Shown here one piece after another: positions 8,133 through 54,672 of a stretch of DNA of 64,000 nucleotides; positions within the stretch are counted from its first letter, which is position 1; each line of letters opens with the position of its first letter. Source of the stretch: Candidatus Falkowbacteria bacterium RIFOXYA2_FULL_47_19 (GTDB lineage: Bacteria; Patescibacteriota; Patescibacteriia; Patescibacteriales; UBA12075); NCBI GenBank assembly GCA_001780275.1, contig MFGB01000016.1, forward strand, positions 92,161-156,160, read 5' to 3'. A program made the translations under genes and the position numbers. A model generated the notes under the pieces. The model made no database searches. It was not told the origin of the DNA and saw nothing but the letters and a program-made list of their open reading frames with translations.

Positions 8133-11100
8133 TCAATGAGTCTTCTCGTGGTCTTTCCGGCAGAGGGCGACGAACATGATCGGAACGATATACAGGGTCA
8201 GGATCGTAGAGGCGACCAGGCCGAAAGACAAAGACAGGGAAAAGCCGCGCCAAAGTTCATTGGACCAAATTAGAGGGAAGACGCCGGCTATGGTGGTCAG
8301 GGAGGTAAGAAAAATCGGTTGCATGCGGGAGATGCCGGCCTCGACGATCGCTTCGGCAAGTTCAAGTCCGTCTTCGATATTCTTGTTTATACGATCAATA
8401 AGGACGATCGCGTCGTTGACGACGATGCCGGCCAAGGACACGATGCCGATAAAGGCCAGGAAAGAGAAGGGTTGGCCGAAAACGAGGAGGCCGAAGACCA
8501 CCCCGACAATAGCCAGGGGCAGGGAAAATAGGATTATGAACGGCTGTTTAAAGGAATTAAACTGCAGGACCAGGATAAAGGCGATAAGGATTACGGCCAA
8601 TCCCAGGGACATGAAAGTTTCCCGGAAAGATTTTTCGATGTCTTCGACCTCACCCCCGACCTTGATCGAAAAATTCGGCGGCAGTTCGATTGACGTTCTT
8701 TTCTTTTCGAAGTCGTCAAGGATCTTCTGGAGATTGGCGCCCTCCTTTATGTCAGCGCTGACGGCCGCGTATTTCGCTCCGTCCCGGTGCTGGATAGAGA
8801 GAAGGGCCGGGTTAAAACTGACGCTGGCGACATCTTTCACGGCGATGTATCCACGCGGAGATGGCAGGAGCACTTTTTCAAGATCGTCGACGCCTTTGAA
8901 TTCGTTTTGGTCGTATTTTACCGTTATATCGACATCATCGCCCTCAAGGTTTATCTCGGTCGCGGCATTGCCGAAAAGGCTGGTCCGCAAGGTGGAGGCG
9001 ACGGTAACCATATCAAGGCCGTAATAATCGGCTTTTTGCCTGTCGATCTCGAAAGTGAATTCACCGGCGGCGTCCTCGATATTATCCTTGACATTGAAAA
9101 TATCCGGATTGCCCGCCAATATTTTTTTGATTTTGCCGGCTGTGTCCGTCAAGCCTTCGAGTGTATCCCCGAAGATCCGCACTTCGATCGGGGCGCCGGT
9201 CGGCGGTCCGGCCGAAAGTTCTTCCACGGTAACCTCACCTCCCTGAATCGCGGTAATTTCACCGCGGATCGAATCGGCGATCTCGTAGCTTTTCCGGTCG
9301 CGCAAATCTTTCTCGACCAGGTTTACGGTTATGCCGCCTAAGTTTTCACCCGCTTTTCCGCCCTCGCCCGGATTAACGGATTGGCTCTGGCCGATGTTAA
9401 CGACGTAATTGTCCATCTCCGGGATGGCATTGACGATTTTTTCTGCTTCCCGGACGACCGGACGCGTCAAAGCTAGGGTGGAACCGGCCGGCAATTTTAC
9501 GCTGACAAGGAAATAATCGAGATCGACCTTAGGGAACATTTCGATTTTCATGAAACCGGCGGCCGGTATGCCGACGGCTATGAGAAAAGCCGCGGCGGCG
9601 ATAGCGAGAGAGAGGCGCCTTTTCGCCTTGCTTATAAGCACGCCCTGAAGAAATGGCCCGTAAAAGCCGTGGATCTTAAAAAACAGACCGTCGAAAAAAC
9701 GGTGCCGTTTTTTATTCCGATGGGATCCGTCCGCCGTTTTGATCTTTATGAAGCGGGCGGCTAAAACCGGCACGACGACCAAGGCTACGAAAAGCGAGGA
9801 AATAAGCGTCACGGTGATCGTTTTGGGCAAGACCGAAATATATTGTCCGAGAATGCCGGAAACCAGGAGCATGGGCAGGAAAGCCGCCACAGTCGTCATG
9901 GTTCCGGAAGTGATAGCCCATTTAAAATTCCAGACCGACAGAAGCGCGGCCTCCGCGACGGTTTTTTTATGGCGGGTAACGTATTCGTTGATGCCCTCGA
10001 TGATGACGATCGAGTTATCGACCATAAGACCCAAAGAAAGAACGAGGGAAAAAAGCACCATCGAATTAAGGGTCAGGCCTTCGAGTTTCAGGAACATGAA
10101 AGCCATAAGAAAGGCCATCGGTACGGATAAAGCCGTGATGACCGCTCCGCGGAAGCTTAAGACCAGCATCAGGATTAAGGTTATAAGTATCATGGTCTGA
10201 ATGCCGTTAGCTCCCAAGGTGTTCAAATCTTCTTTGATGAAGACGGAATTGTCGTTGGTTTTCTGAATCTTGAGATCGGACGGCAGAACGCCCTTGGCGT
10301 AAAGATCATCGATTTCTTCGCGGGTATTGTCGACAATATCAAGGATATTGCCCCCGGTCCGCTTATAGACCAAGAGCGAAACAGTATCTTCGGCCGGCAC
10401 GTCCCGGAAGCCGATTTTCGATTCGGTTTTTTTGTCTTTGAACGCATCTTCGATCCGTCCGAGATCCTTAAGGAAGACCGGGGAGCCGTCTTGAGTGGCG
10501 ACGACTATATCATAAAGATCGGTAACGCTTTTGAAACGCCCCTTTACCCGGACGTCATAGTTGAAATCATCAATGCCTATATTGCCCGCCGGAAGGCTCA
10601 CGTTGGCGCGGCCGACGGCCGCCACCACCTGTCCTAACGATAGTCCGTAGTTCGACAGTTTCGTCTGGTCGACCGCTATCCGGAATTCCCGGGTAAGGCC
10701 GCCGGAGACGACGACTTTCGATACGTCCTTGACGTTCTCCAAAGCCTCTTCAAGGTCGTCGGCGATTTTTTTTAAAGCGACTTCGTCATACTGAGCTCCG
10801 ACCAGGGAATAGGTCACGATCGGCATATCAGTGAAGTTTATCTCCGTTACGATCGGCGTTTCCGCGTCCGTCGGCAGTTCCGCTTCGGCATTGTTGGCCG
10901 CCTCCCTAAGCTTGCGGAAACTTTCATCCAGATCGGCTTCGGCTTCGTATTCCACGAAAACGCTCGATACGCCTTGTCCGGAAGTAGAGCTGTATAATTT
11001 GACGTTTTCCAGGTTCTTTATCTCATCTTCTATTTTTCTGGTCACGAGTTCTTCGATATCGACCGGGTTGGCGCCGGGATAAATCGTCGTCACGACGGCG

Positions 11101-43368: not shown

Positions 43369-44571
43369 ATGTTAATCACGGATATTTTCAGATTAGCGAC
43401 CAGGATGTTCCGGACCAATCGTTCCCGGACGATCCTTACTATCCTGGGTATAAGCGTCGGTATCGGGGCCATTCTTTTTTTGGTTTCTTTAGGTTATGGT
43501 CTTCAGGAGATGATTTTAAGGCAGATCACGACCTCCGAAGCTCTTTTAAGCCTCGACGTTTCTACCGGCGATCTTGAGAACCTGAAGATCAATAAGGATA
43601 CTATCGGTGACATAAGCTCGATTCCGGGTGTGGAAAAGCTAAGCCCTCTGGTGTCGGTCCAGGTGCAGATGGGGGTCGAAGACATATCTTCGGAGTTGAC
43701 CGCTAATTTCGCGGACAGCAATTATTTCCGGCTCGACGGAACGACGCTTAAAAAAGGCTCGTTCTACAAAGACGAGCCCGGAGACGTGAAAAAGGTCATT
43801 ATTTCCTCCTCGGCCCTCCAGCTTTTTAATTTAAGCGAAGACGAGGCTTTTGGAAGATTGATAAGGTTTTCCATATTTTTGCCCGAAAAGGAAGAGGATA
43901 AGATCATCCGCGAATCCGTGGAATTGGGCCAGGACTTCCGGATCGTCGGCATTATCGAAGAAGAGGGATCGAACTACGTTTATCTTCCTTTCGCGATCAG
44001 CGAAAAAATGGAGATATTCGATTATAGCAAGGTTAAGGTCAAGGTCGATAGAAAAGAGAACCTTGATATCGTCAGATCGGCGGTTATCGACAAGGGCTAT
44101 ATCGTAAGCGCCCTCTCGGACGTCATCGAGCAGGCGAATCAGGTTTTCGGCATCGTCCAGATAGTTTTAGCTTCGTTCGGCATCGTCGCTCTTATAGTTT
44201 CCGCTATCGGCATGTTCAACACCATGACGATCGCCCTTCTGGAGCGGACCCAGGAGATCGGCATCATGAAAGCTCTGGGCGCGACCAGCCTCGATATCTG
44301 GAACATGTTCCTGGCCGAATCGATAATCATCGGTTTCTTCGGGGGATTGGGAGGAATTATCATCGGCATGGCCGGAGGCGAGGTTTTTAATTATGGCGTC
44401 AATCTTTTGGCCGGAGCTTTGGGCGGGGAAAAGATCGATATGTTCTTTACTCCTTACTGGTTCGTTTTGCTCATCATCTCTTTTTCGACCATTGTCGGCC
44501 TTCTAACCGGTTTTTATCCGGCCCGCCGCGCCGCCCGCATCAACGCCTTGGAAGCGTTGCGGTATAAATAA
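43369..44571 (+). CDS. ABC transporter permease, FtsX/MacB-like (4 TM with large extracytoplasmic domain)
   Basis: TM1, then an extracellular domain of about 220 aa, then three C-terminal TM helices. The protein ends with the characteristic FtsX-family motif (GFYPARRAARINALEALRY). Confidence 0.8.
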   Translation: MLITDIFRLATRMFRTNRSRTILTILGISVGIGAILFLVSLGYGLQEMILRQITTSEALLSLDVSTGDLENLKINKDTIGDISSIPGVEKLSPLVSVQVQMGVEDISSELTANFADSNYFRLDGTTLKKGSFYKDEPGDVKKVIISSSALQLFNLSEDEAFGRLIRFSIFLPEKEEDKIIRESVELGQDFRIVGIIEEEGSNYVYLPFAISEKMEIFDYSKVKVKVDRKENLDIVRSAVIDKGYIVSALSDVIEQANQVFGIVQIVLASFGIVALIVSAIGMFNTMTIALLERTQEIGIMKALGATSLDIWNMFLAESIIIGFFGGLGGIIIGMAGGEVFNYGVNLLAGALGGEKIDMFFTPYWFVLLIISFSTIVGLLTGFYPARRAARINALEALRYK

Positions 44572-46693: not shown

Positions 46694-47422
46694 ATGGAAG
46701 AAACTTACGCCACTCGGGCCATAATTTTAAAACGGGAACCGTTCCGGGAACGCGACAGCCGAATCGTCGTACTCTCTCCCGACCGGGGAAAGCTTGAGCT
46801 TATCGTTCGCGGCACCAAGAACTTAAAATCGAAAATGGCCGGCCATATCGAGCCGGTAAGCCTGGTAAATTTCATGGTAGTGCGCGGGCGTATTTGCGAT
46901 TACGCCGGGAACGCGATAAACGAAAAAAGTTACGCGGGGATAAAAAACGACCTGTCCAAGCTCGTTTGGGTCGGAAAATCCTTTAATTTTTTGGAAAAGG
47001 CCATAAAGCCGAACGAGACCGTCGACGCTGACCGTTTCTTCGCGCTTCTGAATGACTATCTGGAAATTGTCGATCGCGGCCTAAAGCCGGAGAATTACGA
47101 AATTTTCCATAATTTTTTTCTGCTTAAATCCATGTCGCTTTTAGGATACGCTCCGGAATTGTATAATTGCTTTCGCTGCCGCGAAAAGATCCTGCCGCAA
47201 GGGAATTATTTTAAGCCCGCTCACGGGGGTATCGGCTGCGGCAATTGCCGGGAAGCGCGCGGCCAGGATGATCCGGCGATTTCCGACAACTGCGTAAAAG
47301 TCTTAAGATCGGTCCTGAAAGACGGATTAAGCCGTTTGGCCAAGTTTAAAATCGACAATGGTCTGGGAAGGGAAACGATCAATATTATCGGTTCGTTTAA
47401 AAACTATCACGCGGATTTTTAA
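46694..47422 (+). CDS. recO: DNA repair protein RecO
   Basis: An N-terminal OB fold (AIILKREPFRERDSRIVVLS) and a C-terminal Cys4 zinc finger (CFRC...CGNC). Confidence 0.8.
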   Translation: MEETYATRAIILKREPFRERDSRIVVLSPDRGKLELIVRGTKNLKSKMAGHIEPVSLVNFMVVRGRICDYAGNAINEKSYAGIKNDLSKLVWVGKSFNFLEKAIKPNETVDADRFFALLNDYLEIVDRGLKPENYEIFHNFFLLKSMSLLGYAPELYNCFRCREKILPQGNYFKPAHGGIGCGNCREARGQDDPAISDNCVKVLRSVLKDGLSRLAKFKIDNGLGRETINIIGSFKNYHADF

Positions 47423-47452
47423 AATTTTTAGCCGCGGAAAACCGGAGGGCTC

Positions 47453-47660
47453 GATGTTAAAAGCAGTGGTGATTTTTTTTATCTTTTTTGGTTTCTTGGT
47501 TTGGTTTTTTTTGAGGGGTCGGTCTTGTCCGGCCTGCAAATCTACCGATATCGATATCGATATTGAAAGATGCTTCGGACTTCCCATGCGCGAGATCCAT
47601 ACCTGCGAAAAATGCGGTTACCAATGGAAAAAGAATATTCGCGGGGAGCGAAATTTTTAA
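47453..47660 (+). CDS. Small membrane protein with C-terminal Cys4 zinc ribbon
   Basis: MLKAVVIFFIFFGFLVWFFL, then CPAC...CEKC. Start chosen at an internal ATG of the 100-aa ORF. Confidence 0.4.
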
Positions 47661-47683: not shown

Positions 47684-47710
47684 CTCCGGCATTTAAGCCG
47701 GAGTTTTTAT
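47684..47710 (+). terminator. Rho-independent terminator
   Basis: ctccggc-atttaa-gccggag followed by tttttat. Confidence 0.7.
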
Positions 47711-47797
47711 ATATTATCAGTCTTTGATGATTTTATGCTAATATTAAATAATATATATGTATCTGGGACGACGGAAGTATTGATTGTGAAGATTAAT

Positions 47798-47826
47798 TTG
47801 ACATTTATCTTTATTTTGGATAATAT
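47798..47826 (+). promoter_or_regulatory. Sigma70-like promoter (TTGACA, 17-nt spacer, TAATAT) of the aspS leader
   Basis: TTGACA at 47798-47803 and TAATAT at 47821-47826. Confidence 0.45.
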
Positions 47827-47839
47827 TATTTATAACAGC

Positions 47840-48020
47840 CGACAAATTGTATAGCCAGATGATCCCGATCGTGACAGCCGGGTGATGGCAGTAAAATAAA
47901 CATTAAAGAGGTTTCGGGCGAGCGTTCGCTTACCCGGGGCAAACGGGGTGGCACCGCGGATCGTAAAATTCGTCCCTGAATATCAACCATATTTTGGTAT
48001 TTAGAGACGAATTTTTTTAT
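47840..48020 (+). promoter_or_regulatory. T-box riboswitch leader (putative Asp specifier GAC) upstream of aspS
   Basis: The conserved T-box sequence GGGGUGGCACCGCGG at 47945-47959, where the UGGC bulge is complementary to the GCCA acceptor end of tRNA-Asp. A candidate specifier GAC-A lies at 47873-47876. A K-turn-like GAUGA/UGA pairing flanks the specifier region. The terminator is aaattcgtc (47966-47974) pairing with gacgaattt (48007-48015), followed by T7. Confidence 0.72.
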
Positions 48021-48072
48021 TATAATTAAGCCTCGTGTCACGCGTTTCCGCGTTTCATGCGGCCTGAAACAT

Positions 48073-49848
48073 ATGTTGCGTACGCATACCTGCGGGGAGA
48101 TGACTAAAAAAAATAACGGCGAAACTGTTACGCTTTGCGGCTGGGTGCACCGGCGGCGGGACCACGGCGGAGTGATCTTTATCGATCTTAGGGACCGGTA
48201 TGGGCTTACTCAGGTCAAGTTCGATCCGGAAAAAGACAAGAAAGCCCATAGTGAGGCCGAGAGTCTCCGGAGCGAATGGGTGATCGCGGTAAAGGGCAAA
48301 GTCGCCCTGCGGCCCGGCGACATGATCAATCCGAAGATGAAGACCGGAGAGATCGAGATCGAGGCGGGCGAACTATCGATCTTAAACCAATCGAAAACGC
48401 CGCCTTTCGAACTTGACGAGGAGAAGGCCAAAGAGGCCAACGAATCGGTCAGGCTCAAATACCGTTTCGTGGATCTGCGGCGCAATAAGCTTCAGGAGAT
48501 CATGAAAAAAAGAGACGATGTGATCCGCTATATCCGGGAGTACTTCCACAAGAACGACTTTATTGAGGTCCAGACACCGATATTGGCAAATTCATCTCCC
48601 GAAGGCGCGCGGGATTTTCTTGTGCCTTCCCGCCTGCATCCCGGAAAATTTTTCGCCCTGCCTCAGGCCCCGCAGCAGTTCAAGCAGCTTCTGATGGTCG
48701 GCGGCCTTGACCGGTATTTCCAGATCGCGCCCTGCTTCCGGGACGAGGATCCGCGGGCCGACCGGCATCCGGGAGATTTTTACCAGGTTGACATGGAAAT
48801 GAGCTTCGTCGTCCAGGAAGACGTCTGGAACATGTGCGAACCCCTGATGATAGAATTAACCGAAAAATTTTCCCATAAAAATGTTTTGAATAAAAAGTTC
48901 CCGCGCATCCCTTATCGGGAGGCGATGGAAAAATACGGATCCGACAAGCCCGATCTGCGTTTCGGTCTGGAGATCAGGCCGATTACCGACGCGGTCAAAG
49001 ACTGCGGCTTCGGCGTTTTCGCCGATACGGTCAAAGCGGGCGGCGTAGTTCATGCCTTAAAAGTTGACGGCGGCGCCAAATTCACGAGAAAAGAGATTGA
49101 CGATCTGACCGATCTGGCAAAAAGCAAGGGCGCGAAGGGATTGGCTTATATTCAGATCAAGGAAGATAAACTGCAATCGCCGATCATTAAATTCTTGGGC
49201 GAGGATCTGGCGCGGGAGATAATCGCTTCGGTCGGGGCCGCTTCCGGCGATATCGTCTTTTTCGGCGCCGACAAATGGCGCGCTGTCTGCGACGCCTTAG
49301 GCGTAGTCCGGAATAAATGCGGTGAATGGCTTGGACTCAAGGATAATTCTCAGGCGGCCTGGGTCTGGATCGTGGATTGGCAGATGTATGAATATTCGGA
49401 ATTGGAAGAAGGGCGGATAGATTTTTCCCATAATCCGTTTTCCATGCCCCAGGGCGGTTTGGAGGCATTGAATACCAAAGATCCTCTCGATATCTTAGCT
49501 TATCAATACGACTTGGTTTGCAACGGCTACGAGATATCTTCCGGCGCGATCAGGAACCATGATCCCGAGATCATGTACAAGGCTTTTGAGATCGCCGGTT
49601 ACACGAAAGAACAGGTGGACGAAAAATTCGGCGCCATGATCAGCGCCTTTGAATATGGCGCTCCGCCGCACGGCGGCATGGCTCCGGGCCTGGATCGGCT
49701 TCTCATGATCTTTTTTGACCTGGACAATATCCGCGACATCTACGCTTTTCCCAAGGACGGCCAATGCCGCGACCTTATGATGAATTCCCCGGCGGAAGTG
49801 GACGAGAAGCAGTTGAAAGAATTGCATGTCAGAATAGCGAAAACTTAA
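48073..49848 (+). CDS. aspS: Aspartate--tRNA ligase (bacterial type)
   Basis: Full-length colinear similarity to bacterial AspRS (FIDLRDRYG, LPQAPQQFKQLLM, FRDED.RADR, GLDRL). Confidence 0.95.
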   Translation: MLRTHTCGEMTKKNNGETVTLCGWVHRRRDHGGVIFIDLRDRYGLTQVKFDPEKDKKAHSEAESLRSEWVIAVKGKVALRPGDMINPKMKTGEIEIEAGELSILNQSKTPPFELDEEKAKEANESVRLKYRFVDLRRNKLQEIMKKRDDVIRYIREYFHKNDFIEVQTPILANSSPEGARDFLVPSRLHPGKFFALPQAPQQFKQLLMVGGLDRYFQIAPCFRDEDPRADRHPGDFYQVDMEMSFVVQEDVWNMCEPLMIELTEKFSHKNVLNKKFPRIPYREAMEKYGSDKPDLRFGLEIRPITDAVKDCGFGVFADTVKAGGVVHALKVDGGAKFTRKEIDDLTDLAKSKGAKGLAYIQIKEDKLQSPIIKFLGEDLAREIIASVGAASGDIVFFGADKWRAVCDALGVVRNKCGEWLGLKDNSQAAWVWIVDWQMYEYSELEEGRIDFSHNPFSMPQGGLEALNTKDPLDILAYQYDLVCNGYEISSGAIRNHDPEIMYKAFEIAGYTKEQVDEKFGAMISAFEYGAPPHGGMAPGLDRLLMIFFDLDNIRDIYAFPKDGQCRDLMMNSPAEVDEKQLKELHVRIAKT

Positions 49849-53028: not shown

Positions 53029-53280
53029 TTCTCTTGTCCTTTCCGATATGTTCTTTCGAAATTTTTAAATTGTCAAAATTCTATTTTTGCTTATATTACC
53101 AGAATATTATTTTTTTGACAAGAACTTTTAGCAAATTTTTCCGTTGCCCTTGTTACTTGAATTAAATATGGATATTTGCTAATATTAAGATAATGCGATC
53201 ATGATAACGCGTCAGCGCCAAAGAGGTGGTAATCGGACGGGATAGCCGGTATAATAAAATTATAAAATAGGTAAAAAAAT

Positions 53281-54672
<1,392 letters not shown>

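Follow-up and report, generated by a model that had tools for sequence, protein, structure and literature searches.

A probable transcription-attenuating T-box riboswitch with an ultrashort stem I and no stem II in front of aspS in a Patescibacteria genome

We analysed a stretch of 64,000 nucleotides (nt) from Candidatus (Ca.) Falkowbacteria bacterium RIFOXYA2_FULL_47_19 (contig MFGB01000016.1), hereafter the window, in which the gene for aspartate--tRNA ligase (aspS, product AspRS) is preceded by a structured leader. By its discriminator domain, its kink-turn (K-turn) and its specifier this leader is a T-box, and the comparison of sequences and predicted folds makes it very probable that it works as a transcription-attenuating riboswitch which couples aspS expression to the charging of tRNA-Asp. 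The initial annotation, made from the letters of the window, had proposed a T-box riboswitch with an Asp specifier in control of aspS, and the present results support that proposal. Compared with known transcriptional T-boxes the leader is strongly reduced, as stem I is ultrashort and stem II is absent. Its parts, along with the regulated gene, are given below in window positions; L001 and L016 are leaders of the same reduced type from related loci, and L numbers designate such loci throughout.

47798-47826, plus strand: sigma-70-type promoter with -35 TTGACA (47798-47803), a 17-nt spacer and -10 TAATAT (47821-47826), the best promoter-like site in the region (10/12)
47834-47846, plus strand: 5' segment AACAGCCGACAAA, whose 13 nt probably open the transcript; invariant, being 13/13 identical in the window, L001 and L016
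47854-47889, plus strand: ultrashort stem I, which folds alone at -10.9 kcal/mol
47854-47857 with 47886-47889, plus strand: C-stem of stem I, GCCA/UGGC
47858-47863 opposite 47883-47885, plus strand: K-turn, GAUGAU opposite UGA, in the gaUGAa / gGA layout of the Rfam model
47864-47867 with 47879-47882, plus strand: stem I helix CCCG/CGGG, 4 bp
47868-47878, plus strand: stem I terminal loop AUCGUGACAGC, 11 nt, with the specifier GAC at 47873-47875 followed by A at 47876
47890-47910, plus strand: A-rich single-stranded linker of 21 nt, ending in the purine string AAGAG (47906-47910), which stands where stems II and IIA/B would be
47911-47940, plus strand: stem III, 8 + 4 bp, followed by AAA (47941-47943), -16.9 kcal/mol, matched with high posterior probability to the stem III of RF00230
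47944-47978, plus strand: antiterminator, fold of -9.7 kcal/mol, near-perfect Rfam alignment at high posterior probability
47944-47948 with 47974-47978, plus strand: antiterminator helix A1, 5 bp
47949-47955, plus strand: T-box bulge UGGCACC, 7 nt, of which UGGC is predicted to pair with the 3' GCCA of the tRNA
47956-47961 with 47968-47973, plus strand: antiterminator helix A2, 6 bp, with G47956.U47973 at its base
47945-47959, plus strand: T-box core GGGGTGGCACCGCGG (GGGGUGGCACCGCGG), 114-128 nt before the ATG at 48073
47965-48018, plus strand: intrinsic terminator, hairpin 47965-48015 with U7 at 48012-48018, -21.6 kcal/mol, 10 + 11 pairs with one-nucleotide bulges
48073-49848, plus strand: aspS, aspartate--tRNA ligase of 591 amino acids, the regulated gene (NF001750, 831.6 bits against a cut-off of 443, full length)

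The discriminator domain of T-boxes has been defined by the order RRRxG-stem III-AA, a 7-nt bulge and a G.U steric sensor (PMC7583486). All of these published hallmarks are found in the window leader, the G.U pair being located at the base of A2. The 15-nt T-box core, which had been placed about 110 nt before the ATG, lies close to that distance, and the promoter proposed from TTGACA and TAATAT with a spacing of 17 is present as well; a -35 TTGAC, the 17-nt spacing and the -10 TAATAT are also kept in L001 and L016. The 5' arm of the terminator (47965-47986) holds the whole 3' strand of the antiterminator, with 47965-47978 as the shared stretch, hence the two structures are mutually exclusive, as anticipated. 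By predicted energy (-21.6 versus -9.7 kcal/mol) the terminator is expected to be the default over the antiterminator. Of the terminator as first described, the hairpin, the U7 tract and the competition with the antiterminator hold, but its helix is made of 10 + 11 pairs and not of 9 bp. The U7 tract ends 54 nt before the aspS ATG.

Upstream of the discriminator domain, the suggested kink-turn-like pairing of GAUGA with UGA flanks the 4-bp helix, and the candidate specifier GAC-A is found at the predicted place. The specifier had been expected in an internal loop of stem I; it sits in the terminal loop. Above the K-turn, stem I consists of no more than 4 bp; a specifier internal loop, an S-turn and the distal double T-loop platform are all lacking. 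Nor does the leader have stems II and IIA/B, as only 21 unpaired nt lead from stem I to stem III, and neither an S-turn (AGUA/GAA) nor an F-box (CCGUUA) motif was detected in this linker. It should be noted that the minimum-free-energy fold of the full-length leader pairs the 5' strand of stem I with the A2 region, which we take as an in-silico alternative only.

Comparison with other Patescibacteria gave 18 distinct leaders, consisting of that of the window, 14 from species-level loci and 3 from further neighbours. About 55 species-level Patescibacteria loci had sufficient sequence upstream of aspS, and 14 of them carry a T-box core before this gene; three of six further sampled neighbours have a T-box, all with stem II. 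T-boxes had been thought rare in lineages of this kind, but before aspS in Patescibacteria they are not especially so, being present in about a quarter of the sampled species. Every genuine T-box core in the 643 kb of fetched DNA lies upstream of aspS. All 18 leaders show the K-turn signature of a 5' (U)GA and a 3' GA (occasionally AA or UA), a helix of 4-6 bp and a small terminal loop ending in (A/G)AC-A. Four pairs of the inner stem I helix are paired in 100% of the leaders, which is partly by construction as the script required 4 bp. In this helix 30 cells changed on both sides, compared with 8.0 +/- 3.0 in shuffles (0/500 reached the observed value), and the covariation score of 1.12 versus 0.31 collapses when the partners are slid. 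The C-stems covary in the relatives. Further, each of the 18 leaders has an overlapping intrinsic terminator, of -13.7 to -29.9 kcal/mol and with U4-U8, in which the antiterminator's 3' strand serves as the 5' arm, hence this clade of leaders seems to act on transcription.

The triplet at the end of the loop is GAC in 7 of the 18 leaders and AAC in the other 11 (L005, L006, L009, L012, L020, L021, L025, L034, L038, L084 and L087); nothing else occurs, and A always follows. GAC and AAC are codons of the two tRNAs that an AspRS can charge, and this restriction validates the triplet as the specifier. Judged from sequence comparison, the AAC leaders point to AspRS enzymes of the non-discriminating kind and to a switch that senses tRNA-Asn. 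The aspS T-box of Clostridium acetobutylicum is said to have an Asn specifier and to control the tRNA-dependent Asn pathway; if so, it would be a precedent for AAC in these 11 of 18 leaders.

The modules around stem I vary within the family. The 15 stem II-containing relatives have an S-turn stem II, and most have the F-box pseudoknot. In L012 (about 2860-2905) and L028 (about 2850-2897) the F-box and the T-box have no stem III hairpin between them; stem III has been described in the literature as indispensable. L084 (about 930-965) lacks the IIA/B pseudoknot, and L006 (about 840-890) has a GNRA-tetraloop hairpin, GAAUCUG-GCGA-CAGAUUC, in its place. The relatives thus show a stepwise loss of modules. 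No leader whatever is present in the loci closest to the window after L001 (L002-L004, 75-76% AspRS identity), which makes the distribution of the element patchy.

With all 4227 Rfam families run in E-value mode, RF00230, the T-box family, was the best match of the 64-kb window (E = 2.9e-4). The match covers 47735-47980, and on the leader alone its E-value is 2e-6. The 3' half of the alignment, comprising the purine string, stem III, the T-box sequence, A1 and A2, is almost perfect at high posterior probability, and the stem I/stem II part is forced onto A/T-rich DNA upstream of the promoter. At the gathering threshold no family matched in the 64-kb window, and there was likewise no match on the 14 related loci. 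The relatives score 37.5-73.7 bits with RF00230 (38.7-73.7 bits where stem II is present), none of them reaching the threshold of 93; for those with stem II the Rfam alignment places the K-turn correctly and swaps 74 interior stem I positions for 4 nt. Annotation by the Rfam threshold hence under-counts T-boxes of the Candidate Phyla Radiation (CPR), as 15/15 scanned leaders (the window and 14 relatives) are sub-threshold.

We also scanned both strands of the window for hairpins that are flanked by a K-turn and whose loop has (A/G)AC-A at its 3' end. Three sites were found, compared with 0.20 +/- 0.57 per window in dinucleotide shuffles, and one of them falls exactly in the slot of about 60 nt between the predicted start and stem III, for which the chance is about 1e-3 to 1e-4. 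The two other sites, at 43662-43697 on the plus strand inside an open reading frame (ORF) at 43369-44571 and at 10882-10911 on the minus strand, are both probably chance occurrences.

Several observations weigh against a functional T-box in the window. The RF00230 score of 35.6 bits lies far below the gathering threshold of 93, a result which the initial annotation had named as grounds for rejection; we ascribe it to the missing modules of this architecture and not to a poor match. A covariance model of stem I (R1) was built from seven stem II-containing relatives only. It located the stem I of five held-out leaders correctly (L084 and L006 with E about 1e-3; L041, L038 and L016 with only E 0.26-1.3, the L016 stem I scoring 12.1 bits at E = 1.3). 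The stem I of the window, with its 4 bp, U.U pair and loop of 11 nt, is not detected by R1 either with default filters or with filters off, and this test failed. Consequently, the assignment of the window stem I rests on its fold, the K-turn layout, the comparison with L016 and the motif-frequency control given above. The covariation for leaders without stem II rests on two lineages. A tRNA-Asp gene, from which the anticodon and the discriminator base could be read, was searched for in the window and 60 fetched loci and not found; G73 is typical of bacterial tRNA-Asp, and the UGGC of the bulge would fit it. Further, truncated stem I's are reported to bind tRNA barely detectably without stem II (PMC7583486; PMC11297988), and transcriptional T-boxes to need the distal platform of interdigitated T-loop motifs (IDTM) (PMC7583486, PMC11297988). 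By current understanding the window leader should accordingly bind tRNA poorly.

The sub-threshold Rfam score and the missing R1 match could also be read as signs that there is no riboswitch at all, and that a promoter, an unrelated hairpin and a terminator merely stand together with a chance likeness to the T-box core. The comparative data effectively refute this. The window-wide E-value was obtained over all families, the same element precedes aspS in 17 other distinct Patescibacteria leaders with covariation, and all genuine cores in the fetched DNA are placed in front of aspS.

In the collections searched, stem II is absent in only three distinct leaders, namely those of the window, L001 (89% AspRS identity) and L016 (70%). 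L082 and L083 carry copies of the window leader and L081 a copy of the L016 leader, and the same leader has been assembled independently in several datasets (L082, L083, L001, L016/L081). A metagenome scan with a pattern of the 5' segment and the T-box core re-found only the L082 and L081 copies, and protein searches from both stem II-less AspRS lineages gave nothing between 76% and 89-100% identity. The linker is exactly 21 nt in the window, L001 and L016 despite divergence of its sequence, and the distance from the codon to the T-box is 69-74 nt in these leaders versus 86-122 nt in the relatives with stem II. In stem I, stem III and the upper terminator, L016 has other sequences than the window, yet the pairing is retained by compensatory changes; the stem III of L016 is an all-A/U helix of the same kind. 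Invariant in all three leaders are the promoter hexamers, GUGACA, AAAGAGG, the T-box core and the lower terminator. The window and L001 are 92.4% identical over the leader RNA, compared with 70.2% at the third codon positions of aspS, 71.6% in the upstream DNA and 60% in the spacer between terminator and ATG. By these identities the leader is clearly under purifying selection.

Two further observations concern single leaders of this group. In L016 (2728-2765) the antiterminator helix A2 carries an 8-bp insertion (GGAAAUUA / UAAUUUCC), which the window leader does not have. In L083 (109-481) the 373 nt upstream of aspS, covering the leader and its flanks, are 100% identical to the window, and aspS itself (482-2257) is 95.6% identical; this pattern points to a recent recombination event or a mosaic assembly more than to selection alone.

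The same conservation bears on whether the leader is a relic, descended from a stem II-containing T-box and incapable of productive tRNA binding, so that it would serve as a constitutive attenuator or have its read-through set by a signal other than charging. Such a history would account for the lack of both modules that the literature deems necessary for tRNA affinity, distal stem I and stem II. It would also agree with the rarity of the stem II-less type, at three distinct sequences, and with the tolerated loss of the leader in L002-L004. We nevertheless find it improbable. The specifier GAC-A, the UGGC bulge, the purine string and the G.U sensor pair are all intact and do not vary between lineages in which the third positions of aspS are saturated (38% identity), stems I and III keep their pairing through compensatory change, and conservation is higher in the leader than in the non-coding DNA on its flanks. 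Decay would not be expected to spare exactly the residues that contact the tRNA.

For a leader that senses tRNA-Asp charging we propose the following course. Transcription would start about 7 nt after the -10 box, at A47834, and the nascent RNA would fold the very short stem I, a K-turn-based hairpin that presents GAC-A in its terminal loop to the GUC anticodon. The 21-nt linker would connect this hairpin to stem III and the T-box bulge. When the bound tRNA is uncharged, its 3' GCCA could pair with UGGC at 47949-47952 and stabilise the antiterminator, which would permit read-through into aspS. When the tRNA is charged or absent, the stronger terminator with its U7 tract would form from the same strand, and transcription would stop at about 48018. 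We infer the binding of tRNA and the sensing of its charge, along with sufficient affinity in a leader that has neither an elbow-binding distal stem I nor stem II. The missing affinity might come from the invariant 5' segment, from the A-rich linker or from a protein cofactor.

In both lineages the start of the invariant 5' segment AACAGCCGACAAA lies exactly 7 nt after the -10 box, hence the RNA probably begins with it. Its conservation equals that of the T-box core, and it contains a second GAC-A; none of the 15 stem II-containing relatives has it. The distance between the segment and stem I is not constant (7, 6 and 0 nt). It might act as a substitute for stem II, as a contact for the tRNA, or on the promoter and initial transcription. 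We consider it possible, though with less than even confidence, that the segment is a module which replaces stem II and distal stem I, a refinement of the charging-dependent T-box and not a replacement for it. Conceivable modes are docking on the codon-anticodon duplex, a contact with another part of the tRNA, or transient pairing of its GCCG with the UGGC bulge. Its full invariance in exactly those three leaders that lack stem II speaks for such a role, as does the second GAC-A. The only duplex common to the three leaders also involves the T-box bulge; it joins AGCCGA with GUGGCA, that is GCCG with the UGGC of the bulge, at -5.8 kcal/mol, and by this model GCCG would mimic the tRNA's 3' end. 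Against it, no predicted pairing beats shuffled controls, as in an RNAduplex search for partners of AACAGCCGACAAA in the rest of the leader 57-76% of shuffled segments did as well. The fixed distance to the -10 box and the variable distance to stem I fit a promoter-proximal or initial-transcribed role, or a protein site on the DNA, equally well, and an invariant segment cannot show covariation. Two other proposals for this region were discarded. A pairing of AACAGCCGACAAA with AAUUCGUCCCUG, seen in a partial-transcript fold, is weak and not conserved in L001, and an S-turn formed from the 5' segment and the linker would require AGUA, which occurs only in the linker of the window and not in L001 or L016.

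With class I transcriptional T-boxes (RF00230, for example the aminoacyl-tRNA synthetase leaders of Firmicutes) the window leader shares the K-turn at the base of stem I, a specifier that matches the gene and is followed by a purine, stem III with flanking purines, a T-box sequence of the AGGGUGGNACCGCG type in a 7-nt bulge between A1 and A2, and a competing intrinsic terminator. It differs from them by a stem I of only 4 bp above the K-turn, which has no internal loop, S-turn or elbow platform, and by the lack of stems II and IIA/B; the distal stem I and the Rfam threshold are thus two features of the canonical family that it fails. The distal double T-loop platform, which contacts the tRNA elbow, has been described as essential in transcriptional T-boxes (PMC7583486 section 6.2).

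An ultrashort-stem-I class is known in which the specifier lies in the terminal loop and the elbow platform is absent; it has been described as translational and limited to ileS and tRNA-Ile (bioRxiv 10.1101/2023.02.28.530422). These ileS T-boxes of Actinobacteria (Mycobacterium, Nocardia) have the short K-turn stem I, the terminal-loop specifier and the lack of an elbow platform in common with the window leader, and the S-turn stem II, and in most cases the F-box pseudoknot, in common with the 15 stem II-containing CPR relatives. The ileS class is described as working by Shine-Dalgarno sequestration and as strictly dependent on stem II, whereas the window leader, from Patescibacteria, precedes aspS, lacks the stem II domain altogether and has an intrinsic terminator at its end, and so fails three of the features of that class (stem II, translational control and ileS). 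The glyQS-type glycine T-boxes likewise have no stem II or IIA/B, pass from the K-turn over a single-stranded linker to stem III and the antiterminator, and are transcriptional. They differ from the window leader by a long stem I with an elbow platform and a GGC specifier, in place of the truncated stem I and GAC. The absence of stem II has been stated for glycine T-boxes only, where it was explained by the strong GGC/GCC pairing (PMC7583486). The aspS T-box of C. acetobutylicum has a canonical long stem I, and the window leader differs from it by its GAC specifier and by a separate asnS in the genome. One of the three aspS genes of that organism is T-box regulated (PMC2494555). In the literature searched we found no paper linking T-boxes with Patescibacteria or CPR.

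Under current rules a transcriptional T-box has a long stem I with a platform, a short stem I belongs to the translational ileS leaders of Actinobacteria, and a short stem I is useless without stem II (PMC7583486, PMC11297988, bioRxiv 10.1101/2023.02.28.530422). The aspS leaders of Patescibacteria break the first two rules and the window leader breaks the third. Further, we speculate that the window leader might be a minimal T-box of about 185 nt which uses anticodon and NCCA contacts only, has neither elbow platform nor stem II, and is helped by AACAGCCGACAAA or by a CPR-specific cofactor that supplies affinity or speed. More broadly, it might belong to a Patescibacteria clade of transcriptional ultrashort-stem-I Asp/Asn T-boxes which is overlooked by current models and databases and is losing IIA/B, stem III or the whole stem II domain step by step. 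This wider proposal is tentative, and we hold it with much less confidence than the assignment as a T-box riboswitch. If functional, the leader would be the smallest natural T-box architecture seen so far and would allow one to test directly which contacts tRNA recognition really requires within the time that transcription allows. It would also serve as a compact scaffold in structural studies and in the engineering of switches that respond to tRNA, and would indicate that RNA-based sensing of amino acids persists in ultra-small, reduced genomes.

The aspS product is of the bacterial type, and in a protein search it was 100% identical to the AspRS of Ca. Falkowbacteria bacterium RIFOXYB2_FULL_47_14. 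The nearest genomes belong to Falkowbacteria, Moranbacteria and other Patescibacteria. The small ORF upstream of the leader has its own terminator at 47684-47703, hence the leader forms a separate transcription unit. No tRNA genes were found in the 64-kb window. The window also holds a separate asnS (53281-54672), which had been noted to have no such leader. This was borne out, as the region upstream of asnS shows no T-box core, no plus-strand terminator and no Rfam match at E <= 1. A segment there, GGTGGTAATCGG (53225-53236), agrees at 8/12 core positions, has no antiterminator helices, terminator or Rfam match, and is most likely a chance likeness. A minus-strand ORF overlapping the leader (47826-48041, 71 amino acids) is not conserved in L016 and was dismissed as spurious.

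The gene order recO, small ORF (about 100 amino acids, no family match), aspS, which in the window spans 46694-47660 along with 48073-49848, is kept across Falkowbacteria-like genomes (L084-L087, L089) whether a T-box is present or not. Several leaders also have short tandem direct repeats between the T-box terminator and the aspS start codon. CGCGTTTC occurs twice in the window (48041-48056), CATGTTT four to five times in L001 (about 2955-2990) and GCGTTGCGCGATAT twice in L085 (about 1155-1190), and L005 and L009 have similar tandem repeats before aspS.

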